In this document: positions 3,452 to 21,527 of the stretch, in pieces
How positions within the stretch are numbered: the stretch's first letter is position 1
Layout of the letters: each line of letters starts with the position of its first letter
Assembly (NCBI GenBank): GCA_934778215.1
Contig: CAKVOE010000003.1
Coordinates: forward strand, 6,758 to 70,757
From: an uncultured Clostridia bacterium
GTDB taxonomy: Bacteria > Bacillota > Clostridia > Christensenellales > UBA1242
Direction of reading: 5' to 3'
DNA: 64,000 nt
Program-made: the position numbers and the translations under genes
The notes under the pieces: model-generated
Databases searched by the model: none
What the model was told of the DNA's origin: nothing
What the model saw: the letters and a program-made list of their open reading frames with translations, nothing else

Positions 3452-4162
3452 TTATAAAAAAATACTTTCATATAAAATATAAACAAATTCTTTCGGTTTG
3501 TCAAGAAAACAAAAGTGTCCCGCATCTTCAATTACAACCAAACTAGAACCCTTTATTGCCTTATTTAGTTTTTTACCCGCTTTAAGAGTGGTTTCTTTAT
3601 CCAACTCACCCCAAATAAGTTCTGTAGGCAGTCTTATCTCTTTTGCCACCGGCAAAAGGTCTTCGTTTACAACCCTTTTAAAAGTTTTTCGCATCACATC
3701 GGTTTTTAATGCTTTATAGTCGCTAGAACCTAAGTTTAAGTCCTTGCTAGACCCCCTTAGTTTTACCCGAAGTTTATACCAAAAAACCTTTAATTTGTAT
3801 ACTAAACCCCTACCCTCAATAACACCTGCACTGTCTACCAAAATAAGTTTTTTTACAACTTCTTTAAATTTGCTTGCCATCATTATGCCAACACGCCCGC
3901 CAAACGAATGCCCCACAACAATAACTTCTTTAATCTCTAAACTTTTTAAAAGTTTTACTACTTCGCTCGCATAATCGTATACATTATAAGGCACCGCTGG
4001 TTCTTCACTTTTTCCAAACCCCAAAAAATCGACCAACAAATAGGACACATTGTTTTGTGGTAAGCAAGAAACGACCCCGCAAAAAGAGTTGCTGTCTGCA
4101 CCCCAACCGTGCAAAAATAGTACAACTTTTTCTTTGGTGTCGCCTAAAAACTTATAATACAT
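3452..4162 (-). CDS. Alpha/beta-fold hydrolase
   Basis: HGWG oxyanion motif, GHSFGG nucleophile elbow, C-terminal DAGHF. I prefer ATG at 4162 (GGGGGA SD 5 nt upstream) over the TTG at 4174 used by the ORF track. Confidence 0.7.
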   Translation of the reverse strand: MYYKFLGDTKEKVVLFLHGWGADSNSFCGVVSCLPQNNVSYLLVDFLGFGKSEEPAVPYNVYDYASEVVKLLKSLEIKEVIVVGHSFGGRVGIMMASKFKEVVKKLILVDSAGVIEGRGLVYKLKVFWYKLRVKLRGSSKDLNLGSSDYKALKTDVMRKTFKRVVNEDLLPVAKEIRLPTELIWGELDKETTLKAGKKLNKAIKGSSLVVIEDAGHFCFLDKPKEFVYILYESIFL

Positions 4163-4176
4163 TAATTCCCCCAAAA

Positions 4177-4605
4177 TTAAAGTGCCCTTTCCATAATTAT
4201 GGCGTCATACTGCCCCATATAATATTTTTTTCTTATTGAAATTTGCAAAAAACCTAGTTTTTTATATAGTTTTATTGCACTTATATTGCCCTCTTTAACT
4301 TCTAGCATCAATTTTTTTACGCCCTGTTTTTTTAAAATTTCCATAGCATCTATAAGTAGCCTTTCTGCAACGCCCCTTCGTCTAAAATTAATATCTGTTG
4401 CAATCATCATAACATCTGCACAGTCATAATTTTTTATGATGCTCAAAAAGCCAACTATTGTACCCTTGTCAACCGAAACCAGCACCAAATAATTTGGATT
4501 AATTATTTCGCTTTTTATTAGATCCTTTTCTAAAATATCGTCCGTTTGCATTCGTATATCAAAAATTGACTTGAAGTCATCTTCTTTTGCAACCCTAATT
4601 TCCAT
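4177..4605 (-). CDS. rimI: Ribosomal-protein-alanine N-acetyltransferase (GNAT)
   Basis: GNAT acetyl-CoA motif RRRGVAERLL. Positioned after tsaE-tsaB as in ydiB-ydiC-ydiD. ATG at 4605 with AAGGGGA SD is preferred over upstream TTG. Confidence 0.7.
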   Translation of the reverse strand: MEIRVAKEDDFKSIFDIRMQTDDILEKDLIKSEIINPNYLVLVSVDKGTIVGFLSIIKNYDCADVMMIATDINFRRRGVAERLLIDAMEILKKQGVKKLMLEVKEGNISAIKLYKKLGFLQISIRKKYYMGQYDAIIMERAL

Positions 4606-10570: not shown

Positions 10571-11977
10571 TTAAAACATTTTTTGTATCAATTCTTTAAC
10601 TGTTTGACCATCAGCTTTGCCTTGTGTGTTTTTCATTACATAGCCAATGATAAACGATTGAACTTTGGGGTCGGTTTTGAAATCTTCAACCGCCTTTGGA
10701 TTTTCTTGCTTAAATCTATTCAAAAACTCAATAATCTGTGCTTCGGTTATTGTTGAAATCAAATTGAGCTCTTTTGCCAAAATTTCTGCAGAATTGTGTG
10801 TTTTTTCAATTTCATCAATCAAGATTATTCCATTTGCTTTGGTAATTTTTTTATCTTCAACCATTTTCACAATGTCGGCAAGATCTTGCTCTGAAATTGA
10901 AAATTTTGAACTTCCTGTTTCTTTAATTCTTCTCAAAAATTCAGTTAGAATCCAGTTTGAAATCTTTTTTGGATTGTTGTAAATTTTAACACAAGTTTCA
11001 AAATAATCTGAAATATATCTATCTGTGGTAAGAAGTTCCGCTTCGGATTGAGACAACATAAACTCTTGCATATATTTTTTGCGTCTTTCATTTGGAAGCA
11101 CTGGAATTTGCTTTTTTAATTCTTCAACATCAGCCATGGAAATTTTTATTGGCAAAATATCTGGGTCTGGAAAATAGCGGTAATCTTGTGTTTCTTCTTT
11201 TGAGCGAAGTGCAAAGTTTTCACCCAAGTCGTCATTCCATTTTCTTGTTTCTTGAAAAACCACACCGCCATTAGAAAGGATTTCTTTTTGTCTTTGAATT
11301 TCAAAAGCAATTGCGGATGAAATACTTTTAAATGAGTTAAGGTTTTTCATTTCAGTTCTTGTACCAAACTTTGTTGAACCCTTTGGTTTCAACGAAAGGT
11401 TGACATCGCAACGCATTCCGCCTTCTTCCATTTTGCAGTTTGCAATATCGGCAAACACCAACGCTTCCCTAATTTTTCTCAAAAACTCGCAAACTTCTTC
11501 AGCATTTGAGAACACTGGTTCAGTTACAATTTCAATAAGCGGAGTTCCGCCACGATTATAATCAACCAAAGTCCCAACCATTTTTGAAATATGATTTAAT
11601 TTTCCAGCATCTTCTTCCAAGTGAATTCTGTTAAGCGCCTTAAATTCGCCATTATCAAGAGTGATACCGCCACCCAAACAAATTGGGTGAGCAAGTTGAG
11701 AAATCTGATATGCTTTTGATAGGTCAGGATAGAAATAGTTTTTTCTTTCCATAACAGCATAGTCATTTATTTTGCAACCAAAGCACAGACCTGCTTTTAT
11801 GCAAAGTTCAACGGCTTTTTTGTTTATAATTGGAAGCGCCCCCGGCATACCTGTGCAAACAGGACAAGTGTTTGAGTTTGGCTCTGCACCAAACTCATTC
11901 TTGCACGAGCAAAAAACTTTTGTCTTGGTTTTGAGTTCTGCATGAATTTCGAGACCAATAACAACATCAAAATCCAT
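10571..11977 (-). CDS. gatB: Asp/Glu-tRNA(Asn/Gln) amidotransferase subunit B
   Basis: 468 aa with CPVCTGMPGALP motif and a C-terminal YqeY-like tail. Follows gatA directly. Confidence 0.95.
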   Translation of the reverse strand: MDFDVVIGLEIHAELKTKTKVFCSCKNEFGAEPNSNTCPVCTGMPGALPIINKKAVELCIKAGLCFGCKINDYAVMERKNYFYPDLSKAYQISQLAHPICLGGGITLDNGEFKALNRIHLEEDAGKLNHISKMVGTLVDYNRGGTPLIEIVTEPVFSNAEEVCEFLRKIREALVFADIANCKMEEGGMRCDVNLSLKPKGSTKFGTRTEMKNLNSFKSISSAIAFEIQRQKEILSNGGVVFQETRKWNDDLGENFALRSKEETQDYRYFPDPDILPIKISMADVEELKKQIPVLPNERRKKYMQEFMLSQSEAELLTTDRYISDYFETCVKIYNNPKKISNWILTEFLRRIKETGSSKFSISEQDLADIVKMVEDKKITKANGIILIDEIEKTHNSAEILAKELNLISTITEAQIIEFLNRFKQENPKAVEDFKTDPKVQSFIIGYVMKNTQGKADGQTVKELIQKMF

Positions 11978-13393
11978 TTACTTGTCCCCCTTTAAAATAA
12001 TCTTTGAAACATCATAAAGCACCTTTTCGCTTTTTTCTCTGCCAATAATCTGAAGTCCCAATGGTAATCCCGACTCGCTTGTTGCATAAGGTATACTGAT
12101 TGCAGGCATACCAGCAATTGAAGCAGGAACCGTGAACAAATCTTCAAGATACATACTGATTGGGTCTTGCGATTTTTCGCCAATCTTGAAAGCAACATCT
12201 GGTGTTGTTGGCAAAACAATTGCGTCACAGTCGTCAAAAGTTTGCATAAATTCATTTTTTAAAAGTCTTTGAAGTTTCTTTGCTTTTGTGTAGTAAGCAT
12301 CAAAATATCCGCTTGAAAGCACAAAGTTGCCAAGCATTATCCTGCGCTTAACTTCATCACCAAAACCTTCACTTCTGCTCTTTACATAAATTTCATCAAT
12401 TGTTTTTGCATCTTCACTTCTTGTTGCATATTTAACACTGTCAAACCTTGAAAGATTGCTTGCGGCTTCTGCCGGCGTCAATATGTAATAACAAGCTAAA
12501 CTATTTAAAATGTGTGGCACACTAACTTCAACAATTTTGTGTCCTTTGATTTTTAAATCTTTCAGCATTGCCTCATACTTTGGAAACTGTTCAAGTGTTT
12601 TCAATTTTTCAATAATCTCTTTGCAAACACCAATCTTATATGTTTGTTTTAGCATTTTTTCGCCAAGATCACTTTTGATTGATGTTTGATCTTTTTCATC
12701 TTTTCCTGCCAAAATTTCAAGAGCATATTCATTATCTTCAACAGTTCTTGTAATTGGCCCAGCTTGATCGGTTGATGAAGCAAAGGCAACAATGCCATAT
12801 CTTGAAACAGTGCCATAAGTTGGTTTGATTCCAACCACACCATTAAACGAACTTGGCTGTCTGATTGACCCACCAGTGTCCGTGCCGAGTGCCATAGGAC
12901 AAAGTCCCAATGCTACTGCAACAGCACTGCCACCAGACGAACCACCGGCAACGCACGATTCGTCATAAGCGTTTAAAGTTGCGCCATAAACACTTTTTTC
13001 GCAACTGCCACCCATTGCAAACTCGTCCATATTGCTTCTAGCTAAAATAACTGCGCCTTCATTTTTGAGTTTTGTGATGATTGTTGCATCATAAGGAGAC
13101 ACAAAATCTTTCAAAAATTTGCTAGCACAACTCATGTGTTTGCCCTTGCACAAAATGTTATCCTTTATAACAACAGGAACTCCTGCAAGCTTGCCCAATT
13201 TTTCGCCAGCCTTTGCTTTTGCGTCAATGGCTTTCGCTTGCTCTATCGCATCATCAAAAACCTCAATAATTGCATTATATTCTTTGTATTCTTCTATTCT
13301 TTTAACAAAGAACCGAACGAGCTCTTCACTTGAAAACTTACCAGTCTTAACCCCGTCTGATAATTCTTTTAAACTTAGCTTTAAATAATCCAT
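11978..13393 (-). CDS. gatA: Asp/Glu-tRNA(Asn/Gln) amidotransferase subunit A
   Basis: Amidase signature GGSSGGSA. I prefer ATG at 13393, which overlaps the gatC stop as TAATG, over the longer ORF-track start at 13423. Confidence 0.95.
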   Translation of the reverse strand: MDYLKLSLKELSDGVKTGKFSSEELVRFFVKRIEEYKEYNAIIEVFDDAIEQAKAIDAKAKAGEKLGKLAGVPVVIKDNILCKGKHMSCASKFLKDFVSPYDATIITKLKNEGAVILARSNMDEFAMGGSCEKSVYGATLNAYDESCVAGGSSGGSAVAVALGLCPMALGTDTGGSIRQPSSFNGVVGIKPTYGTVSRYGIVAFASSTDQAGPITRTVEDNEYALEILAGKDEKDQTSIKSDLGEKMLKQTYKIGVCKEIIEKLKTLEQFPKYEAMLKDLKIKGHKIVEVSVPHILNSLACYYILTPAEAASNLSRFDSVKYATRSEDAKTIDEIYVKSRSEGFGDEVKRRIMLGNFVLSSGYFDAYYTKAKKLQRLLKNEFMQTFDDCDAIVLPTTPDVAFKIGEKSQDPISMYLEDLFTVPASIAGMPAISIPYATSESGLPLGLQIIGREKSEKVLYDVSKIILKGDK

Positions 13394-13662
13394 TAGTCCA
13401 CCACCAATGGCACTTGATAGCACCCGTCTTTTTGTTTTGGGGCGTTTGATAAAGCATCAAAGTCGGTTTTGAATTGTTGCTCATCTTCTCGAAGGCTCGA
13501 AATCTTCACACCTTCGACCTTGATGTCTTCTGGAAGCTCAAGTTTTGTGATTTCATCAACAAAGTTTAAAATGTTCATAAAATCTTTTTTGAACGCATCT
13601 TTTTTGCTTTCAGCAATCTCAATCTTGCTTAAGTCTTGCAAATGTTCGAAATCTATTTCCAT
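13393..13662 (-). CDS. gatC: Asp/Glu-tRNA(Asn/Gln) amidotransferase subunit C
   Basis: 89 aa acidic GatC-like protein, 12 nt downstream of aspS, with GGTGG SD. Confidence 0.85.
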   Translation of the reverse strand: MEIDFEHLQDLSKIEIAESKKDAFKKDFMNILNFVDEITKLELPEDIKVEGVKISSLREDEQQFKTDFDALSNAPKQKDGCYQVPLVVD

Positions 13663-13674
13663 AATACCACCTAA

Positions 13675-15408
13675 CTATCTTAATTTTATATGAACTTCAC
13701 GAAGTTGTTCTTCTGTGACATCACCAGGTGCACCCATCATCAAGTCTTGAGCTTTGCTATTCATTGGGAAAGCAATAACTTCACGAATGTTTGACTCGTC
13801 TAAAAGAAGCATCAAAATTCTATCAATACCTGGCGCAACGCCTGCATGTGGTGGCGCACCATATTGAAACGCTGTGTAAAGCGCACCGAATTTCTTTTCA
13901 ACATCTTCTTCTGAATATCCAGCAATTTCAAAAGCTTTAATCATTGTTTCAACTTCTGCGTTTCTAACCGCACCACTCGAAAGTTCAACACCGTTCAAAA
14001 CGATATCATATTGATAAGCCAAAATATCAAGCGGATCTTTTTCTTGAAGTGCTTTCAAACCACCTTGTGGAAGGCTGAATGGGTTGTGACAAAAATCAAT
14101 CTTGCCAGTTTCTTCGTTGATTTCATACATTGGGAAATCAACAATCCAACAGAATTTGTATTGATCTTTTTCAATAAGCCCCAAAGCTTCGCCAACCTCT
14201 GCTCTTAAAATTGAAGCAAGTTTATAGCAAAGTTTTGAGCTTTCGTCAGCAACAACAAAAATGTCATCACCAACTCTTGCACCTGTCTTTTGTTTTAATG
14301 CTTCACATTCTTCATCAGAAATAAACTTGACGATTGGTCCTTTGAGTGAGCCGTCTTCCAAAACTCTAACCCACGCCAAACCTTTTCCGCCAGCAGATAT
14401 AATTTCATCTGAAAGCTTATCAAAAAAGCTTCTTGGCTGACTTTCAGCACAAACAGCAAACCCTTCAATTGTTTTACCCCTAAATGCTTCAAATTCGGTT
14501 GATTTAAACACATCGGATAGATCAACCATTTCAATCTTGTTTCTTAAATCTGGCTTATCTGTTCCGTATTTAATCAATGCTTCTTTGTAAGGGATTTTCA
14601 CAAAATGTCTGTCTGGCATTTCGTATTTTCCAAACTTTTTAAAAATTCTATACAGCAAGTCTTCGCAAACGGCAAACACATCTTCTTGCGTTGCAAAAGC
14701 CATTTCCATGTCAAGCTGATAAAACTCGCCAGGTGAACGGTCTGCTCTTGCATCTTCGTCTCTAAAGCATGGAGCGATTTGAAAATATTTATCCACGCCC
14801 GAACACATCAAAAGTTGTTTAAATTGTTGTGGAGCTTGTGGAAGTGCATAAAACTTGCCCTTATAAACCCTGCTTGGAACAAGATAATCTCTTGCACCTT
14901 CTGGGCTTGAAACTGTCAAGATTGGCGTTTGAATTTCTTCAAAACCAAATTCACGCATAATACATCTCATTTCAAACAAAACATCACTGCGAAGTTTGAG
15001 TTTTGCCTGCATCTCTGGATTTCTTAGGTCAAGATAACGAAACTTAAGCCTTGTTTCTTCGCTTGTTTTCTTGCTTTCGTCAATTTCAAAAGGCAAAATA
15101 TGTTTTGCTCTTGACAAAACTTCAAGTTTGTCAATTGCAATTTCAATTTTTCCTGATTTAATTTTTGGGTTAATGTTTTCATTACCACGAAATACAACCT
15201 CCCCGATGACTGATATTACACTTTCTCTTGAAAGTGATGTCAATAAACTATCATCATGAGTGGTGAGCTGAACCAAACCATACATATCTCTTAATTCTAT
15301 AAAAACGATGCCGCCATGGTCTCTAATTGCGCTAACCCAGCCGGCAACTTGAACTTGTTTTCCGATTAAACTTTCATCAATCTCTTTGCTTGTAATTGTT
15401 CTATACAT
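13675..15408 (-). CDS. aspS: Aspartate--tRNA ligase (bacterial type; probably non-discriminating given linkage to gatCAB)
   Basis: Class II aaRS with FRDEDARADR (motif 2) and GVAPGIDRILML (motif 3). The true start is MYRTITSKEI at 15408 with AGGAG SD. The ORF-track extension to 15615 runs through the leader region. Confidence 0.95.
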   Translation of the reverse strand: MYRTITSKEIDESLIGKQVQVAGWVSAIRDHGGIVFIELRDMYGLVQLTTHDDSLLTSLSRESVISVIGEVVFRGNENINPKIKSGKIEIAIDKLEVLSRAKHILPFEIDESKKTSEETRLKFRYLDLRNPEMQAKLKLRSDVLFEMRCIMREFGFEEIQTPILTVSSPEGARDYLVPSRVYKGKFYALPQAPQQFKQLLMCSGVDKYFQIAPCFRDEDARADRSPGEFYQLDMEMAFATQEDVFAVCEDLLYRIFKKFGKYEMPDRHFVKIPYKEALIKYGTDKPDLRNKIEMVDLSDVFKSTEFEAFRGKTIEGFAVCAESQPRSFFDKLSDEIISAGGKGLAWVRVLEDGSLKGPIVKFISDEECEALKQKTGARVGDDIFVVADESSKLCYKLASILRAEVGEALGLIEKDQYKFCWIVDFPMYEINEETGKIDFCHNPFSLPQGGLKALQEKDPLDILAYQYDIVLNGVELSSGAVRNAEVETMIKAFEIAGYSEEDVEKKFGALYTAFQYGAPPHAGVAPGIDRILMLLLDESNIREVIAFPMNSKAQDLMMGAPGDVTEEQLREVHIKLR

Positions 15409-15449
15409 AATAACTCCTAACTTACTAATAACATTAGTAATACATCTAT

Positions 15450-15478
15450 AATATAAATTTTTACTGGATCTTTTGCAA
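15450..15478 (-). promoter_or_regulatory. Possible internal promoter proximal to aspS
   Basis: TTGCAA (15478-15473), 17 nt spacer, TATATT (15455-15450). AT-rich context makes this weak evidence. Confidence 0.3.
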
Positions 15479-15582
15479 ACCTTTCCAGCAAGGTCTTGAT
15501 TATTTAATAAAACTCTCGCCCAACTGGGCGTCAGTTTTAAGTTTTTGTGTGATTTCCATGATAGACTCCTAAAAATGGTAAT

Positions 15583-15616
15583 AAAAAAAATGGAATAGGT
15601 TTTTCCCTCTTCCATT
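15583..15616 (-). terminator. Intrinsic terminator of the aspS leader (attenuator segments 3:4)
   Basis: AATGGAAGAGG/GAAAAA/CCTATTCCATT pairs at 10 of 11 positions, followed by T-run to 15583. Confidence 0.65.
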
Positions 15617-15640
15617 AGTATTTCTAATTTCCTTGATTAT

Positions 15641-15727
15641 TTAACAAACAATAGAAAAGGGACGCATTAAATATAATGTGTTATCATCATTATTGTTGTC
15701 ATTATTGATCAAACAAACTCTAATCAT
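15641..15727 (-). CDS. Leader peptide, 28 aa, Asn/Asp-rich (MIRVCLINNDNNNDDNTLYLMRPFSIVC)
   Basis: ATG at 15727 with AAGGGGA SD 6 nt upstream. Codons 8-16 are AAT AAT GAC AAC AAT AAT GAT GAT AAC. TAA at 15643-15641. The ORF is too short for the ORF track and was found by reading the minus strand. Confidence 0.6.
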   Translation of the reverse strand: MIRVCLINNDNNNDDNTLYLMRPFSIVC

Positions 15728-15756
15728 AATATTTCCCCTTTCAAAATTATGTTGCC

Positions 15757-15785
15757 ATTTTATCATAAATTTATGCACTTGTCAA
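15757..15785 (-). promoter_or_regulatory. Sigma-A-type promoter of the aspS-gatCAB leader
   Basis: TTGACA (15785-15780), 17 nt spacer, TAAAAT (15762-15757). Confidence 0.65.
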
Positions 15786-15836
15786 GTCCATTCGCCCGAA
15801 TTTAAACCTTTTGTTTTTCCCGTTTCATATTTTCTC

Positions 15837-15889
15837 ATTATTTGAATTTTAGATTTCCCCACTCCATGTCTTTAAATTATTTGAATTTT
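15837..15889. repeat. Two perfect 14-bp direct repeats ATTATTTGAATTTT (39-bp period)
   Basis: Copies at 15837-15850 and 15876-15889, 50-105 bp upstream of the leader promoter -35. A partial third copy, TTATTTGAATT, lies near 16207-16220. Confidence 0.8.
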
Positions 15890-15981
15890 CTGCTCTCACT
15901 GCTCCACTTCTTTTCATTAACCTTTTAAACATTTTGCATAAAAACAAGCCCATTTTCTTTAGTCAAAATATACAAAGCATC

Positions 15982-16010
15982 TTAACTTTTTCTCTAAATC
16001 GTGATATAAT
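15982..16010 (+). promoter_or_regulatory. Candidate promoter with extended -10
   Basis: TTAACT (15982-15987), 17 nt spacer, TATAAT (16005-16010), preceded by TGa to give TGnTATAAT. Confidence 0.45.
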
Positions 16011-16016
16011 ATTATT

Positions 16017-16195
16017 ACAAATATTCGTCCATTCCGTTTGTTTGAGTTGGAAGATTAAGTTTTTAAAAATGACAAAACTAATACACCGATGATTTAGCTA
16101 TATGTTATTAAAGTGACACTTTAAGGTTTCCGCAAGTATCACAACTTTGTCCGCACCTAAAAAACCCCACCTTTTAGGTGGGGATATTTATTTTT
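16017..16195 (+). ncRNA. Candidate ~180-nt small RNA (unknown family)
   Basis: Bounded by the promoter above and by hairpin CCCCACC/TTTTA/GGTGGGG (16165-16183) plus a T-rich tail. It holds no ORF longer than 7 codons. Internal hairpin TAAAGT/GAC/ACTTTA. The terminal hairpin also serves the convergent GH13 gene, so the call is tentative. Confidence 0.3.
16159..16183 (-). terminator. Intrinsic terminator downstream of GH13 gene (bidirectional hairpin)
   Basis: Minus strand CCCCACC/TAAAA/GGTGGGG is followed directly by TTTTTT. Confidence 0.7.
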
Positions 16196-16366
16196 ATCTA
16201 AAATTGTTTTATTTGAATTATTTACAAAAACTTTTAATGGCTTTTTGGTTTTTAATAAAAATTTATACAATATTTAGTACTTGCTTTTTGTAAAATTTTT
16301 AATATTTTTATTAAAATTTTGATAGCGTTAAAAAACAAAAGAATATATAATAATTTATTTTTACCT

Positions 16367-17995
16367 TTAAATTAATATTTGTCTTTTTAGCACAACCGCT
16401 TCAAAAGGACTTAACTCGCCCCTAACCACTTCGCCGTAATTTGTATAAACTATTTCACCCACAGGCAAAAGATATTTTTTTACCTCATCGGTTAAATTTA
16501 CAGTTACATCATATTCCGTTTTGCCCGACCTTCTTAAAAACCTACAAACACCCTTTGGTGCTCGTTTAAAAATGCAATCGCCAAAGCAGAAAACATCAGC
16601 ATTTTCCTTTCTTAGTGACAAAATTTTTCTGTATTCATTTAACGCAGAATGCTCCTCCACTTGCTCCACCGCAACATTTAAAGAGTGGTAGTTTGGGTTA
16701 ACAACAAACCACGGCTTGTGTTCGCTAAACCCCGCAAACGCCGAACCATTCCACTGCATCATTGTTCTTGCGTTGTCCCTACTGGTCTTTTTTAACTTTT
16801 CTAAGACATCATTTTTCTCTTGCTCAGATTTTGCAAGTTCTATTAAAATTTTGGCATTAACATCTTCAAAGTCTGCCCGACTTTTAAACGGATACCCCGT
16901 CATTGCCAGCTCTTCGCCCTGATAAATTATTGGCGTACCTTTTAATAAATACATTGCACAAGCAAATGCCGAAGCACTTTTGCTAAGGGCTTTGGTGTTT
17001 CCATACATACTAACTAATCTTTGATAGTCGTGATTTGTCCAAAAAAGTGTAGACCAGCCACCAAGGTTAATAAGTTTTTCTTTGTTTTTTAACGAATTAA
17101 TAATGGCTTTATAGTCAGGCTTACCCGTTTTGTCAAACCGGTTAAGATGCGAAAACTCAAAAACCATATCAAGTTCGCCTCTATTATTTCCCGAAAATTT
17201 TAATTGGTCCAAAAGGTTAGGATTTCCCCCAAGTTCGCCCATGGTAACCACATTTTTTGTTTTAACACCCGACAAAATTTTTGTTAAAAACTTATGTGCC
17301 TCGTCTGTGTTTGAAAACATTTTGTATGTTTTGTTTACCTTTCCATTTTTAAAGGACAAATTTTTGCCAATGTGCGATATTGCGTCCATTCTAAACCCAT
17401 CAACCGATAAATCCGCCCAAAACTCTAAAACATCACGAATTTGTTTTATGGCAAACTCCGAATTGAAATTTATATCTGGCATTGTTTTAGAAAACAATTT
17501 TAAAAAGTACTGACCCCTAGCCGAATTATATTCCCACGCGCTTCCACCAAAAAAGGACTCCCAATTATTTGGGGGTAACATTTTGCCTTCATCGTTATAT
17601 TTAGGATTTTTCCAATAATAAAAATCTTCATAATCGGTTGCACGGGCAACACTTTTTATAAACCAGTTATGCTCGCTAGATGTATGATTTATAACCATAT
17701 CTATAATTACTTTTAGTCCCAAAGAGTGCGCTCTTGACACCAAATTTTTAAAGTCTTCAATGGTTCCATACTGGCTATAAATTTTTCTATAATCTTTAAC
17801 ATCATAGCCGTTGTCGTCCATTGGCGAATCAAAAAATGGACTTATCCAAATAAAATCTGCTCCTAAATTTTTTATGTAATCTAATTTATTTGTAACGCCC
17901 GCAATATCTCCAACGCCGTCATTATTTGAGTCAAAAAAACTCTTTAAATATATTTGATAACCAACGGCGCTTTTCCACCATTCATTTTTTTCCAT
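16367..17995 (-). CDS. GH13 alpha-glucosidase / oligo-1,6-glucosidase
   Basis: GH13 motifs DGFRMDA, GELGG and NHD, plus N-terminal WWKSAVGYQIY. ATG at 17995 (8 nt from GGAG) is preferred over 18001 (2 nt from it). Confidence 0.85.
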   Translation of the reverse strand: MEKNEWWKSAVGYQIYLKSFFDSNNDGVGDIAGVTNKLDYIKNLGADFIWISPFFDSPMDDNGYDVKDYRKIYSQYGTIEDFKNLVSRAHSLGLKVIIDMVINHTSSEHNWFIKSVARATDYEDFYYWKNPKYNDEGKMLPPNNWESFFGGSAWEYNSARGQYFLKLFSKTMPDINFNSEFAIKQIRDVLEFWADLSVDGFRMDAISHIGKNLSFKNGKVNKTYKMFSNTDEAHKFLTKILSGVKTKNVVTMGELGGNPNLLDQLKFSGNNRGELDMVFEFSHLNRFDKTGKPDYKAIINSLKNKEKLINLGGWSTLFWTNHDYQRLVSMYGNTKALSKSASAFACAMYLLKGTPIIYQGEELAMTGYPFKSRADFEDVNAKILIELAKSEQEKNDVLEKLKKTSRDNARTMMQWNGSAFAGFSEHKPWFVVNPNYHSLNVAVEQVEEHSALNEYRKILSLRKENADVFCFGDCIFKRAPKGVCRFLRRSGKTEYDVTVNLTDEVKKYLLPVGEIVYTNYGEVVRGELSPFEAVVLKRQILI

Positions 17996-18054
17996 AGTCA
18001 TTTCTCCGTAAAATATTACGGATATATTATAACAAAATTTATTTAGATAACAAA

Positions 18055-18095: not shown

Positions 18096-20474
18096 TTATC
18101 TTAAATTTATTGACGCATTTTTAAAGTGGTCGGTTAATCTTTTTATAAAGCCATCAATTTCGCCATTGCTTAGCGTATGCTCATTAGAGCAAATGTTAAA
18201 CCTAAAAGTCATTGAGCGGTATGCTCCAAAGTCTTCACTTTCGTAAACATCAATAAGTTTATACTTAACTACAAATTTACATCTAAATTCGCTAATTAGT
18301 TTTTCTATATCTTCAAACTTCATAGTTTTTGGAACCATAAAGTTAAAGTCTAAATCTACCGTTTGAAATTTTGAAACAGGCTTATATGTTTTAACCTTGT
18401 CTGATACCACCATAAATTTGTTAAAGTCAAATTCTAGCAAACAAACGCTCGCACGCTTATCTAACTTTGACTTAATTTCGGGGTGAATAACACCAAAACT
18501 TCCCACAGTTTCGCCATTTATTATACAATCGGTACTCATATTAGGGTGCATCAAACTATTTGTTGTAACACATGTGTAACTTGGCTTTTGCTTGCAAAGC
18601 GATTCGCACAAATTTTCTACTATACGCTTCATTTCAAAATATAAATCTTTTTCGCTTGCTTTATAACTGCCAATAACCAACGCCAAATGTTTTTCTTCTA
18701 TTGCTAAATTCTGGTCATCTGTGCCACTTACAACTCTTCCAATTTCTTCTATTCGTACTTCTTCAAAACTATTTTTGTTTTCATCATACATTTTAATTAG
18801 TGTAGGAAGCAAGGTACTTCTAATACCACTCTGTCCGCTATTAGAACTATCTAACAATTCAACAAAACTCTTGCACTCTATTCCTAAATTTTGGTTGTAG
18901 TCGGCATAATTCCAAATATAACTATGAACCTCACTAAACCCATACTTTTCGGCAAGCAATCTTTTGGTTTTATATTCTAAAATATGTTTTTCATCTTGCA
19001 AAACTGGTTCAACAGACATTTTTAGCGTTTCTGGAACAATGTTGTCATAGCCAAAAAGTCTTGCAACTTCTTCTACCAAATCTTCTTTTATAGATATATC
19101 TTTGGTTGCTCTAAATGACGGAACAACAACCACCAACTTGCCATTTTCGTTCTTTTCTATGGTAAAGCCAAGTTTTTTTAGCGTGTCTACAATAAACTCA
19201 TCGGTAATTTTGTTTGACCCAATTCTCTTACGAATAAAATCGCATTCAACTTCAATTTTTATAGATTTTGGTTCTACCGTTCTTTTATCTCCAACGCTTG
19301 ATGCAATAATAATACCACTATCTATATTAGACAACAATTTTACTAGCCTTGCAATTGCGAGAGTTGTTAGTTCTGGGTCTAATGATTTCTCGTATCTTAG
19401 CGAAGCATCGGTCGAAAGACCAATTGTTTTAGATGCTTTTCTTATAGAAGACGACTCAAACACCGCACTTTCTAGCAAAAAGCCCGTGGTGTCACCGGCT
19501 ATCCCTGAAAGTTTACCACCCTTAATACCCGCAATAGCAACAGGAGTATTGTTTTTGTCACAAATAAGAACGGTACCCTGCTTAACTTTATGAACCTCGC
19601 CTTCTAGCGTCAATAACTCTTCATTTTCTTTTGCTTCACGAACAATAACGCCGTTTACCACTTTGCTATCAAAAGCGTGCATAGGAGTTCCAAGTTCTAG
19701 CATTGTGTAGTTTGTTAAATCTGCCAAAAGGTTAATATCTCTTAACCCGCAATAATTAAGCCTAATCTTCATTATTCTAGGAGATTTTTTAACTGTTACA
19801 TTTTCTATATCTAATGCCGAATAGCGTAAACATTTGTTGGTTTCAACGCTAATAGATGGTGCTTCAATCCCTTTAAGTTTTGAAAGGTCAAGTGTTTCAT
19901 AAGGTTTCATTGGTCTATTAAAAATAGCAGACAATTCTCTTGCAAAACCCACATGACCCCACAAGTCAGGACGGTTTGTTAGTGATTTGTTATCAATTTC
20001 TATCAAGCAGTCGTCTATTGGTAGTACATCTTTAATGTTTGTACCAAGTGGGGCTGTAATATCCTTAAAATCTACAATTCCTTCGTCATCGCTACCAATG
20101 CCAAGTTCGGCTTCGCTACAACACATTCCAAAACTATCCACGCCTGCAAGTTTTGCCTTTTTAATTTTATGACCTGCAACCATACCGCCAATTCTTACAA
20201 GTGCCGTAATCATACCAGCATAAACATTTGGAGCGCCTGTTGCAATTTGCAAATTTTCACCACTGCCATCATTTACCGACAACAAATTTAGGTGTGTCCC
20301 CTCTATCTTTTCGCAACTTTCAACCTTTGCAATTACAACATCTTCCATATCGCTACCAGCGTGCTTAGCCTCTTCAACTTCGGCGGTAGAAAGCGTAATT
20401 CTTTTTACTATTTCATCTTCGGTTAATCCATCTAAATCAACCAAATCTTTTAACCAATTTAATGATATAATCAT
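18096..20474 (-). CDS. pheT: Phenylalanine--tRNA ligase beta subunit
   Basis: 792 aa with N-terminal tRNA-binding domain, B3/4 and B5 domains and a C-terminal FDX-ACB-like domain. Follows pheS. Confidence 0.95.
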   Translation of the reverse strand: MIISLNWLKDLVDLDGLTEDEIVKRITLSTAEVEEAKHAGSDMEDVVIAKVESCEKIEGTHLNLLSVNDGSGENLQIATGAPNVYAGMITALVRIGGMVAGHKIKKAKLAGVDSFGMCCSEAELGIGSDDEGIVDFKDITAPLGTNIKDVLPIDDCLIEIDNKSLTNRPDLWGHVGFARELSAIFNRPMKPYETLDLSKLKGIEAPSISVETNKCLRYSALDIENVTVKKSPRIMKIRLNYCGLRDINLLADLTNYTMLELGTPMHAFDSKVVNGVIVREAKENEELLTLEGEVHKVKQGTVLICDKNNTPVAIAGIKGGKLSGIAGDTTGFLLESAVFESSSIRKASKTIGLSTDASLRYEKSLDPELTTLAIARLVKLLSNIDSGIIIASSVGDKRTVEPKSIKIEVECDFIRKRIGSNKITDEFIVDTLKKLGFTIEKNENGKLVVVVPSFRATKDISIKEDLVEEVARLFGYDNIVPETLKMSVEPVLQDEKHILEYKTKRLLAEKYGFSEVHSYIWNYADYNQNLGIECKSFVELLDSSNSGQSGIRSTLLPTLIKMYDENKNSFEEVRIEEIGRVVSGTDDQNLAIEEKHLALVIGSYKASEKDLYFEMKRIVENLCESLCKQKPSYTCVTTNSLMHPNMSTDCIINGETVGSFGVIHPEIKSKLDKRASVCLLEFDFNKFMVVSDKVKTYKPVSKFQTVDLDFNFMVPKTMKFEDIEKLISEFRCKFVVKYKLIDVYESEDFGAYRSMTFRFNICSNEHTLSNGEIDGFIKRLTDHFKNASINLR

Positions 20475-20486
20475 AGCTTTTCTCCT

Positions 20487-21527
20487 TTACATATCCAAAC
20501 CAAACTGCTTTAAAACCTTTAAATTTCCGCTGTTTAGCCACCTAATATCGTCCATTTCAGACTTTATCATAACAAGTCTATCAAGCCCTAAGCCAAAGGC
20601 AAAACCGCTATATTTAGTACTATCAACACCCGCCTCTTTTAAAACCTTTGGGTGAATCATTCCACAAGGACAAAGTTCTATCCACGAACCGTGTTTGCAA
20701 ACCGAACAGCCACTACCACCGCAGAATGGGCATAGCACATCTAGTTCAAAACTTGGTTCTGTAAAAGGGAAAAACCCCGGACGCAACCTAACTTCTACCT
20801 CTTTACCAAACACCTTACCTAGCATTTGCTTCATAAAATAAATTAAGTTTGCAACCGAAACATCTTCGTCTACAACAACGCCTTCCATCTGAAAGAAGGT
20901 CGTTTCGTGAGAGTGGTCTATTGCTTCATTTCTATAACATCTTCCTGGGAAGATTGCCTTAACATGACCACCATATTTTCTCAAAATTGTATTTTGCAAG
21001 GCCGATGTATGCGTTTTTAGAAGTTCGCCGTTGTTTAGCCAAAAGGTATCTTGCATATCACGAGCAGGGTGAGTTGCTGGCACATTTACCGAATCAAAAC
21101 ACTCATATTCGGTCACAACTTCCTTTCCATCTTCAACCACAAACCCCATAGATTTAAACACATCTTCTAGTTGTTGTTGAATAATGGTTCTTGGGTGCAA
21201 CGACCCAACACCAGTTTCCACCGGCATTGTAATATCAATCTTTTCGCCCGAGGTTAATTCCTTTTGCAATTTTTCCTCTTCAATTTTTTCTTTCTTTTTG
21301 TTTAGGGCGTCTTCTATTTTTTGCTTTAAAGCGTTAATTTTCATTCCCGCTTCTCTTTTCTTTTCTACTGCAACATCTCTAAGCATAGACATAATTTCGG
21401 TAAGTTTGCCCTTTTTCCCCGAAAACTCAACTCTTAGCGACTCCAATTCGTCTGCATTGCCACAGTTATTATATTTTTCATCGAACTCACGACTAATCTT
21501 TTCTACCGATTCGTTAATTTTTTCCAT
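20487..21527 (-). CDS. pheS: Phenylalanine--tRNA ligase alpha subunit
   Basis: 346 aa class II core with FPFTEPS and GFAFGLGLDRL motifs. AGGAG SD. Confidence 0.95.
   Translation of the reverse strand: MEKINESVEKISREFDEKYNNCGNADELESLRVEFSGKKGKLTEIMSMLRDVAVEKKREAGMKINALKQKIEDALNKKKEKIEEEKLQKELTSGEKIDITMPVETGVGSLHPRTIIQQQLEDVFKSMGFVVEDGKEVVTEYECFDSVNVPATHPARDMQDTFWLNNGELLKTHTSALQNTILRKYGGHVKAIFPGRCYRNEAIDHSHETTFFQMEGVVVDEDVSVANLIYFMKQMLGKVFGKEVEVRLRPGFFPFTEPSFELDVLCPFCGGSGCSVCKHGSWIELCPCGMIHPKVLKEAGVDSTKYSGFAFGLGLDRLVMIKSEMDDIRWLNSGNLKVLKQFGLDM

Follow-up and report, generated by a model that had tools for sequence, protein, structure and literature searches.

How is the aspS-gatCAB operon controlled in the uncultured Clostridia bacterium whose DNA is presented above? 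In the stretch analysed here (64 kb, hereafter the window), this operon lies on the minus strand behind a promoter, a short open reading frame (ORF) with a run of Asn and Asp codons, and an intrinsic terminator. A preliminary description, made from the sequence, had proposed that the leader ORF is translated and that the position of the ribosome on it selects between an antiterminator and the terminator. The trpL, hisL, pheL and pheST leaders are built in this way: an ORF with a codon run accompanies four RNA segments, which pair either as 1:2 and 3:4 or as 2:3, and the pioneer ribosome decides between the two states. One of these, E. coli pheST, is an aminoacyl-tRNA synthetase operon. For the window, the proposal is supported by conservation in relatives, compensatory changes, folding under a ribosome mask and the lack of a T-box. 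We consider it likely that the element is a functional ribosome-mediated, leader-peptide transcription attenuator of aspS-gatCAB, driven from the promoter P1; the best reading of the signal is the supply of Asn-tRNA(Asn), with Asp-tRNA(Asp) as a minor contribution.

Elements of the leader and their alternative pairings

The argument rests on the following features of the window.

15757..15785, minus strand: promoter P1, with the -35 element TTGACA (15785-15780), a 17-nt spacer with a TG extension, and the -10 element TAAAAT (15762-15757).
15734..15742, minus strand: segment 1, the Shine-Dalgarno (SD) region of the leader, GAAAGGGGA, which pairs with segment 2 in ribosome-free minimum-free-energy (MFE) folds (anti-antiterminator).
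15641..15727, minus strand: leader ORF, 28 codons plus UAA (15643-15641), MIRVCLINNDNNNDDNTLYLMRPFSIVC.
15680..15706, minus strand: regulatory codon run, codons 8-16, AAT AAT GAC AAC AAT AAT GAT GAT AAC (six Asn, three Asp), the proposed ribosome stall site.
15665..15678, minus strand: small hairpin CAUUA-UAUU-UAAUG, codons 17-21.
15650..15661, minus strand: segment 2, CCCUUUUCUAUU, codons 23-26, the 5' strand of the antiterminator, which forms a 12-bp duplex with 15616-15605.
15605..15616, minus strand: segment 3, AAUGGAAGAGGG, the 5' arm of the terminator plus the first loop base, which pairs with segment 2 or segment 4.
15583..15599, minus strand: segment 4, the 3' arm of the terminator, CCUAUUCCAUU (15599-15589), plus the U tract to 15583.
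13675..15408, minus strand: aspS, bacterial-type aspartyl-tRNA synthetase, 577 aa, the first regulated gene.
10571..13662, minus strand: gatC (13662-13393), gatA (about 13393-11978) and gatB (11977-10571), with PF02686, PF01425, PF02934 and PF02637, contiguous with aspS.

P1 matches the consensus at 11 of 12 positions and is the top promoter-like site within 15200-16500. The SD AAGGGGA (15740-15734) stands 6 nt ahead of the ATG of the leader ORF (15727). The promoter, the SD, the 28-codon ORF and its nine consecutive Asn/Asp codons had all been named in the preliminary description, and we recovered each of them on the minus strand, at the coordinates given there. The amino acids of the codon run are those handled by the genes downstream. 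Could an AT-rich short ORF and a hairpin simply have come together by chance in a genome of 35% G+C? AT-rich intergenic DNA is rich in short ORFs and in promoter-like sites (12 observed in the region, 7.7 expected), but a nine-codon stretch made up entirely of Asn and Asp occurs exactly once in the window, all six frames counted, and in 100 runs of a second-order Markov simulation of the window not even eight of nine was reached. Similarly, none of 500 dinucleotide shuffles yields a duplex as good as the antiterminator. Together with the conservation and covariation described below, this effectively refutes chance, the probability of which we regard as negligible.

The intrinsic terminator, AAUGGAAGAGG/GAAAAA/CCUAUUCCAUU (15616-15589), is located between the leader ORF and aspS, with arms at 15616-15606 and 15599-15589 followed by eight U to 15583. 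Arms and U tract had been correctly recognised in the preliminary description, which did not mention an internal G·A mismatch (15609/15596); the stem thus has 10 bp over 11 positions. As had also been proposed, segment 2 pairs with the 5' arm of this terminator at 12 consecutive positions (10 Watson-Crick and two G-U pairs), so that the two helices are mutually exclusive. The free energies called for in the preliminary description are -17.8 kcal/mol for the 2:3 helix (RNAduplex) and -10.8 kcal/mol for the 3:4 helix (RNAfold). Over the full leader, the terminator fold (-34.0 kcal/mol) and the antiterminator-enforced fold (-31.8 kcal/mol) are nearly isoenergetic, as expected of a switch.

Because ribosome-free folds pair the leader SD with segment 2, we read the SD region as segment 1; in the window, this 1:2 helix has a free energy of -13.6 kcal/mol. 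A different 1:2 helix had been suggested previously, between ACAACAAU in the codon run and AUUGUUUGU. It exists on paper, but at -2.7 kcal/mol it appears in no MFE fold, and it was rejected in favour of the pairing between SD and segment 2. The small hairpin at 15665..15678, which does appear in MFE folds, could be an RNA polymerase pause element. Finally, translational attenuation of the erm/cat type was considered and rejected, as the switchable hairpin is followed by a U tract and the aspS SD, 175 nt further downstream, is no part of it.

Pfam assignments bear out AspRS and GatCAB as the products of the downstream genes, the latter being an Asp-tRNA(Asn)/Glu-tRNA(Gln) amidotransferase. The aspS start is ATG 15408: homologues are 576-578 aa long and start with MYRT, and their lengths and starts identify a 646-aa ORF from the in-frame ATG 15615 as an artefact. 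No T-box had been seen in the preliminary description, and covariance-model searches detect none, whether over all 64 kb at the Rfam gathering score or in 15250-16400 at E<=10, the T-box of a related locus (L173, see below) serving as positive control. Nor does any Rfam family match the leader, either at gathering threshold or at E<=10. Searches with the His, Trp, Thr, Leu and Phe leader families gave only sub-threshold Phe_leader and Thr_leader matches, at 16157-16219, which correspond to the terminator of the upstream gene.

Conservation among relatives and folding behind a ribosome

AspRS homologues were collected from genomes and from a collection of 5.8 billion proteins, and the surrounding DNA was fetched for those 73-85% identical. 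Nine loci (L001, L081/82, L083, L086, L088, L171, L304, L325 and L333) carry a leader of the window's design, hereafter type A, upstream of aspS(-gatCAB). Four of the nine are from GTDB species genomes, and their AspRS is 77-95% identical to that of the window where measured. The leader peptides are as follows.

L001 (AspRS 95% identical): MIRVCLINNNNNNNDNNTLYLMRPFSIVC
L081/L082 (85%): MLKVCLINNNNNNNNNNALYLMGPFSVAD, annotated by gene callers as a 29-aa product
L086 (84%): MIRVCLINNNNNNDNNTLYLMRPFSIVC
L083 (84%): MIKVCLINNNNNNENTLYLMGSLFYCLLK
L088 (79%) and L333: MFKIFANNNNNNNANTLNIMGSFSIVIK
L171 (77%): MFKVIFVNNNNNNNNNALNIMGSFSIAY
L325: MFKVILVNNNNNNNNNTLNIMGSFSIAY
L304: MFTFAVLANNNNNNNANTLNIMGSFSIVRN

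Used as a query for genome loci, the leader-peptide alignment retrieved L001 alone, and a metagenome scan with AspRS gave one close relative among the matches listed. Common to all type-A leaders are a TTGACA-type promoter, an SD and an ATG, a run of Asn codons in frame, a CCYUUUUCU segment and a terminator, and a TTGAC(A/T)-17-TAnnnT promoter is found at the equivalent position in all relatives with a leader. Spacing is also constrained: the stop codon lies 6-15 nt past CCYUUUUCU, and 105-114 nt separate the ATG from the terminator. When the window is compared with L001, hardly any change is seen between the -35 element and the aspS ATG, whereas the DNA upstream of the promoter is full of substitutions and indels. 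The conservation check proposed in the preliminary description has thus turned out in its favour, for the ORF and codon run as for segment 2 and the terminator.

The codon run itself changes length in multiples of 3 nt, alternates between AAT and AAC, and is interrupted by Asp, Glu, Ala or Leu codons but never by Lys codons. Relatives have 6-10 AAY codons and 0-3 Asp codons, and the window, with six Asn and three Asp, is the most Asp-rich of all and an outlier. This composition supports a sensed codon that is essentially Asn. Of the Asn/Asp sensing originally proposed, the Asn part is thus upheld, with Asp as a probable minor component, the Asp-rich run being peculiar to the window.

At the RNA level, segment 2 and the small hairpin are kept at the nucleotide level, with no synonymous variation, the hairpin retaining its stem across type-A leaders while its loop is UAUU or AAUA. 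The antiterminator is present in all type-A relatives, and its duplex is better than shuffles in five of them (z from -2.3 to -3.6), the value being -1.3 in L171. The helix between SD and segment 2 (9 bp, -11 to -13.5 kcal/mol) is found in nine of nine type-A leaders and covaries, with GGGGA/UCCC replaced by GGAGC/GGUUCC in one subgroup. Terminators of the relatives are perfect hairpins (-14 to -18 kcal/mol), and their stems differ between subgroups (AAUGGAAUAGG/CCUAUUCCAUU, AAUGAGAUAGG/CCUAUCUCAUU and AAGUGGAAAGG/CCUUUCCACUU) via compensatory changes. In an alignment of the terminator limited to the seven sequences that align without gaps (MAFFT misaligned the L088-type stems), 97.4% of cells are paired, two pairs have changed on both sides, and the sole unpaired internal cell is the G·A of the window.

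These data bear on whether the mini-ORF could instead be an independent small gene, encoding a secreted or modified peptide or a small RNA, with an Asn richness of no regulatory value and with aspS-gatCAB transcribed from a separate downstream promoter. The unit does have its own promoter, ORF and terminator, the MIRVCLI N-terminus and the TLYLM motif of the peptide are conserved, and there is the 29-aa product annotated in L081/L082. However, a +1 insertion in L083 shifts the frame and rewrites the C-terminal peptide while CCCUUUUCUAUUG is retained, so that the constraint there is on RNA and not on peptide. Run length and composition vary freely, and the segment that a stall would uncover is significantly complementary to the terminator 5' arm. 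In addition, the peptide has a single homologue among 5.8 billion proteins, a 53-aa protein with no name or domain (found with a 45-aa GTG-extended ORF as query).

Conversely, the RNA may matter and the ORF be incidental: in an untranslated switch, some protein, tRNA or small ligand would be bound by the conserved CU-rich segment, the SD-like purine tracts and the AAY repeats and would choose between terminator and antiterminator. Invariance of segment 2 and of the small hairpin fits this idea, as does the stability of the ribosome-free leader, whose whole fold is better than that of shuffles (z = -2.7), and the AAY repeats are complementary to the anticodon GUU of tRNA(Asn). Yet every leader whose SD was examined has it 5-8 nt from a start codon (ATG, or GTG in the more distant L002), and the run never leaves the Asn frame, showing AAT/AAC wobble, no Lys codons and indels in multiples of three. 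Moreover, the stop codon is always placed where a terminating ribosome masks the antiterminator strand, no Rfam family is matched, and convergent leaders (see below) have no common RNA motif. An untranslated switch is thus very unlikely.

To follow the effect of ribosome position, masked leaders were folded in silico (12 leaders, seven type-A ones among them, and six further cases). When an Asn codon occupies the A site, the 2:3 helix is the MFE nascent structure and all bases of the terminator 5' arm are paired; when the stop codon occupies it, the nascent RNA has a free energy of about 0 and the terminator forms with a pair probability of 0.87. The same behaviour is seen in each of the seven type-A leaders tested. 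In the window, the stalled state favours the antiterminator even at equilibrium (terminator pair probability 0.17-0.28). The geometry is therefore that of a switch in which the antiterminator strand is hidden by a ribosome that has reached the stop codon and left free by a stalled one. A leader of this kind, conserved in relatives, is very probably a classical ribosome-stalling switch.

The proposed mechanism would run as follows. RNA polymerase would start from P1 near 15750, and a ribosome would load on the SD and AUG (15740-15725) and translate the leader ORF. When charged tRNA(Asn) is plentiful, this ribosome would reach the UAA at 15643-15641 and cover segment 2, so that 3:4 would form and transcription would terminate in the U tract (to 15583). 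When charged tRNA(Asn) is scarce, it would stall within the codons at 15706-15680, at least 19 nt upstream of segment 2, which would then capture the nascent segment 3 (12 bp), block the terminator and allow readthrough into aspS-gatCAB. If no ribosome is present, segment 1 would pair with segment 2, giving termination by default and blocking new initiation on the leader; from the synthesis of segment 2 onwards, further ribosomes would find the leader SD closed. As AspRS and GatCAB produce Asn-tRNA(Asn) by the indirect route (PMC4206432), the circuit would be a product-sensing feedback loop, in a host that presumably has an AspRS of the non-discriminating kind (ND-AspRS) and no AsnRS.

Unrelated Asn-codon leaders and an Asn T-box

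Leaders of the same logic but with no sequence relationship to type A, and one T-box, were found at further loci. L221 and L279 come from (AAY)x7 matches, an arbitrary sample of at least 120 loci.

L085, L087, L170 and L172: type-B leaders MLRLINNNNNNNLNTF, MFRLINNNNNNDNLNAFNMGFIFVVEKN and MFRLFDNNNNDDNLNAFNMGFIFVVEK, upstream of gatCAB-aspS (L085, L087, L170) or of aspS alone (L172).
L087:4846-4970 and L170:4846-4970: internal leader MKKMLLDNLNNNNNNT, which starts at the gatB stop (TAAATG), before aspS.
L002, a 61% relative: leader (M)VKVILVNNNNNNNFNVTQ, with a GTG start, upstream of aspS; terminator of -21.1 kcal/mol.
L221, reverse strand 4232-4358 of SVIQ01000006.1, a Clostridiales metagenome-assembled genome (MAG): leader MLNIVLNNNNNNNLNHI, upstream of gatCAB, with a 14-bp terminator.
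L279, reverse strand 3817-3930 of JBDTFR010000018.1, a Bacteroidia MAG: leader MYLSFNNNNNNNFNHHR, upstream of asnA, with a 12-bp terminator.
L173:1579-1811: T-box (RF00230, 130 bits), upstream of gatCAB-aspS, in place of the leader peptide; AspRS 73% identical.

Each of these Asn leaders has an intrinsic terminator (-14 to -21 kcal/mol). In most of them, a ribosome mask on the last Asn codon leads to sequestration of the terminator 5' arm (-10 to -19 kcal/mol) and a mask on the stop codon abolishes this fold; the switch is reproduced in L085, L170, the internal L087/L170 leader, L221 and L279. The stalled-state MFE fold misses the terminator arm in L087 and L172 and is weak in L002, and antiterminator complementarity in L172 and L002 is not above chance. 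The internal leader of L087 and L170 has its own antiterminator and a terminator (UGGAGCACA...UGUGCUCCA followed by U5), so that the operon has tandem attenuators there. In L279, the downstream gene encodes AsnA, aspartate-ammonia ligase (PF03590, E 1.4e-101), which extends the Asn leader attenuator to another phylum and to a biosynthetic gene. What these convergent leaders have in common is the codon run and the logic, and no RNA motif. In three further Clostridia MAGs (L179, L236 and L245), we observed a family of small Asn/Gln/Lys-rich proteins, each with a good SD (e.g. MSKKNNKENKNNQNRNSQNNNNNNNERQNNNCR in L179; that of L245 also ends in NCR), apparently unrelated to attenuation.

The T-box of L173, aligned to its model, has GAA-A-AAC-A on the 3' side of the specifier loop, i.e. 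an Asn codon followed by the conserved purine, and its bulge UGGC matches a G73 discriminator. With moderate confidence, its specifier is thus read as Asn, consistent with tRNA(Asn). An Asn-responsive T-box has likewise been reported to control aspS2-gatCAB2-asnB in Clostridium acetobutylicum (Saad et al. 2012, J Biol Chem 287:20382, as cited in PMC4206432). Taken with the leader peptides, these T-boxes indicate that one physiological signal is read by two devices in close relatives.

Another possibility is that the leader senses general translation stress, such as a ribosome slowed or stalled by an antibiotic, in the manner of erm or cat leaders, and not the charging of Asn-tRNA. Drug-responsive leader-peptide attenuators are common in Gram-positive bacteria, and whatever delays the pioneer ribosome upstream of segment 2 would tip the balance towards the antiterminator. 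But the only feature common to the unrelated leaders is the Asn/Asp run (nine codons here, 6-10 Asn in relatives), every regulated gene is aspS, gatCAB or asnA, and a sister lineage has a T-box with an Asn specifier at the same place. We hold this explanation to be highly improbable.

The unrelated leaders also return us to the independent small gene. A separate promoter for aspS-gatCAB is conceivable: a weaker promoter-like site at 15478-15450 of the minus strand (TTGCAA-17-TATATT, 9/12) lies inside a conserved AAAAAUWUUAUAUUA string and may be an internal promoter, P2, for basal expression of aspS-gatCAB, and TGnTATAAT elements are clear before gatC in type-B loci and in L221, where the extended -10 element TGATATAAT follows the terminator. 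In L002, though, the U tract is about 35 nt from the aspS ATG, which leaves no room for a second promoter, and aspS must be transcribed through the terminator. Furthermore, five Asn mini-ORFs unrelated in sequence all stand directly upstream of genes for Asn-tRNA or Asn supply, which would be difficult to account for if the mini-ORF were an independent gene. An independent gene is thus very unlikely, and attenuation of aspS-gatCAB remains our preferred reading.

Computation establishes the elements with their energies and significance, how they are conserved and covary, and the in-silico geometry, whereas translation of the ORF, stalling, termination and readthrough are inferred. Several observations weigh against attenuation as proposed. 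If a second promoter operates (15478-15450, or TGnTATAAT before gatC), the attenuator may modulate or boost a basal expression and not fully gate the operon. Type-A leaders are phylogenetically close, so that counts of conserved features overstate independent support, and the near invariance of segment 2 means that there is little true covariation in the 2:3 helix. The substitution that perfects the terminator in L001 weakens the antiterminator. In the relatives, the terminator is thermodynamically preferred even in the stalled state (P about 0.9), so that antitermination there must be kinetic; in addition, segment 2 could be contested by the SD region that a stalled ribosome leaves free behind it. 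Finally, all relatives are metagenome assemblies, and L084 and L089 (AspRS about 80% identical) have no leader in the flanking DNA examined.

Flanking features, known attenuators and the place of the Asn leader

Two further features lie between the terminator and aspS.

15500..15559, minus strand: second mini-ORF, MEITQKLKTDAQLGESFIK, with SD AGGAG, part of the same leader, directly past the terminator.
15419-15438, minus strand: hairpin UUACUAAU-GU-AUUAGUAA, directly before the aspS SD, which covaries (CUUAUC/GAUAAG, CCUCAC/GUGAG).

The second mini-ORF holds a GC hairpin, CGCCC-AGUU-GGGCG (15530-15517, 5 bp). Its SD, ATG, ORF and hairpin, [U/C]GCCC-N4-5-GGGC[G/A], are kept in L001, L081, L083, L086, L088 and L171, and the codon before the hairpin is Asn in six relatives and Asp in the window. 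Its possible roles include those of a second checkpoint, a processing site and a pause site. Taken as another intrinsic terminator, the hairpin would have its U-rich stretch 3-8 nt off the stem, and in L083 and L086 this stretch is weak or missing. The stop codons of both mini-ORFs are spanned by a direct repeat of 17 nt, TTTRTTAAATAATCAAG on the minus strand (15495-15511 and 15632-15648), which is common to the window and L001 and is not found in more distant relatives. Repeat insertions occur in L171 (1230-1700 and 3500-3990) and L089 (1-327). In one type-A relative, AAACAAACAAAAAATAAAAAC repeats follow the terminator, and longer insertions, apparently GC-hairpin repeats resembling miniature inverted-repeat transposable elements (MITE-like), separate the second mini-ORF from aspS and aspS from gatC. 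The leader thus tolerates large insertions downstream of the attenuator.

On the other side, a 39-nt tandem duplication (72% identity) lies directly upstream of P1, at 15809-15886 in plus-strand coordinates. One of its copies holds GAAACGGGAAAAAC, similar to GAAGAGGGAAAAAC (15599-15612), which comprises the 5' arm of the terminator and its loop; the duplication may represent degenerate copies of parts of the leader or a site to which a regulator binds. Further upstream, a strong bidirectional terminator-like hairpin, CCCCACCU-AAA-AGGUGGGG (16165-16183, 8 bp), follows an alpha-amylase-family gene (16367-18001). This hairpin, which accounts for the weak Rfam Phe_leader and SpF10 matches, appears to insulate the leader promoter from upstream transcription. 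The window also contains pheS (20487-21527) and pheT (18096-20474; together 18096-21527, minus strand), pheS directly after a yhbY-like gene and obg. These genes have no T-box, and no Phe-rich leader was found upstream of pheST in the window.

How does the Asn leader compare with known systems? With the trpL, hisL, pheL and pheST leaders of Proteobacteria it has in common the codon run, the mutually exclusive pairings and the intrinsic terminator. It differs from them by its Asn codons, by its regulated genes (AspRS and a tRNA-dependent amidotransferase), by its low-G+C Clostridia host and by a segment 1 that is the leader's own SD and not the regulatory codons. It has no sequence or covariance-model similarity to the His, Trp, Thr, Leu and Phe leader families of Rfam.

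Leader peptides are also on record in Firmicutes. In bacilli, His leader peptides replace T-boxes upstream of a hisS paralogue and of hisZ (Naville & Gautheret 2010, PMC2965389), and His leaders were predicted in the Bacillus cereus group, Peptostreptococcaceae and Erysipelotrichales in 2022 (PMC9413887). For Staphylococcus aureus ilv-leu, a Leu-rich attenuator peptide is reported (PMC5794164). The premise of the preliminary description, that the T-box is the established mechanism for aminoacyl-tRNA synthetase operons in Firmicutes, is therefore too strong, since His leaders in front of a hisS paralogue had been described by 2010 (PMC2965389). These 'regular' leader-peptide attenuators resemble the one studied here, as they stand where relatives have T-boxes and as one of them precedes a gene of the synthetase family; the Asn leaders differ in amino acid and targets, show no sequence relationship to them, and replace the T-box inside one narrow clade. 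Compared with the Asn T-box of C. acetobutylicum, as far as it is described in the citing paper (PMC4206432), the logic (ND-AspRS and GatCAB increase when tRNA(Asn) is uncharged), the terminator readthrough as output and nearly all genes are the same. That T-box reads uncharged tRNA directly by RNA-tRNA pairing, whereas the element of the window would read charging via the speed of a ribosome on Asn codons. The preliminary description knew of no peptide-based Asn/Asp sensor for such an operon, and our survey of the full-text literature, a scope that excludes subscription journals, likewise gave neither an Asn-codon leader peptide nor any case in which a leader peptide controls aspS, gatCAB or asnA. 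Novelty would thus reside in the amino-acid specificity, the regulated genes and the use of the SD as segment 1, while the architecture is that of a classical leader-peptide attenuator.

A broader reading can be advanced, to which we give slightly less than even credence. Asn-codon leaders may form an unrecognised and recurrently invented class of attenuators, set over every route to Asn and Asn-tRNA(Asn) (ND-AspRS, GatCAB and AsnA) in uncultured gut Clostridia and in Bacteroidia, and replacing the Asn T-box. In the lineage of the window, control may have two stages: a four-segment attenuator that sequesters its own SD and admits a single pioneer ribosome, followed by a translated mini-ORF in which an Asn/Asp codon directly adjoins the conserved GC hairpin and which provides a second checkpoint before aspS.

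To our knowledge, Asn is among the few amino acids with no leader-peptide attenuator in textbooks or in Rfam, a gap that this element and its convergent cousins would fill. As the element is small and modular, it can be tested directly with reporters, and it could serve as a sensor of Asn-tRNA charging. The findings also provide a search rule, namely an (AAY)n mini-ORF and a terminator upstream of aspS, gatCAB or asnA, which could annotate many 'hypothetical 29-aa proteins' in MAGs. For the family, a single narrow clade shows substitution between T-box and leader peptide at the same operon. For the organisms themselves, the leaders are a hint, at the level of sequence, that uncultured gut Clostridia rely on a tRNA-dependent synthesis of Asn-tRNA(Asn) that is tuned to demand.

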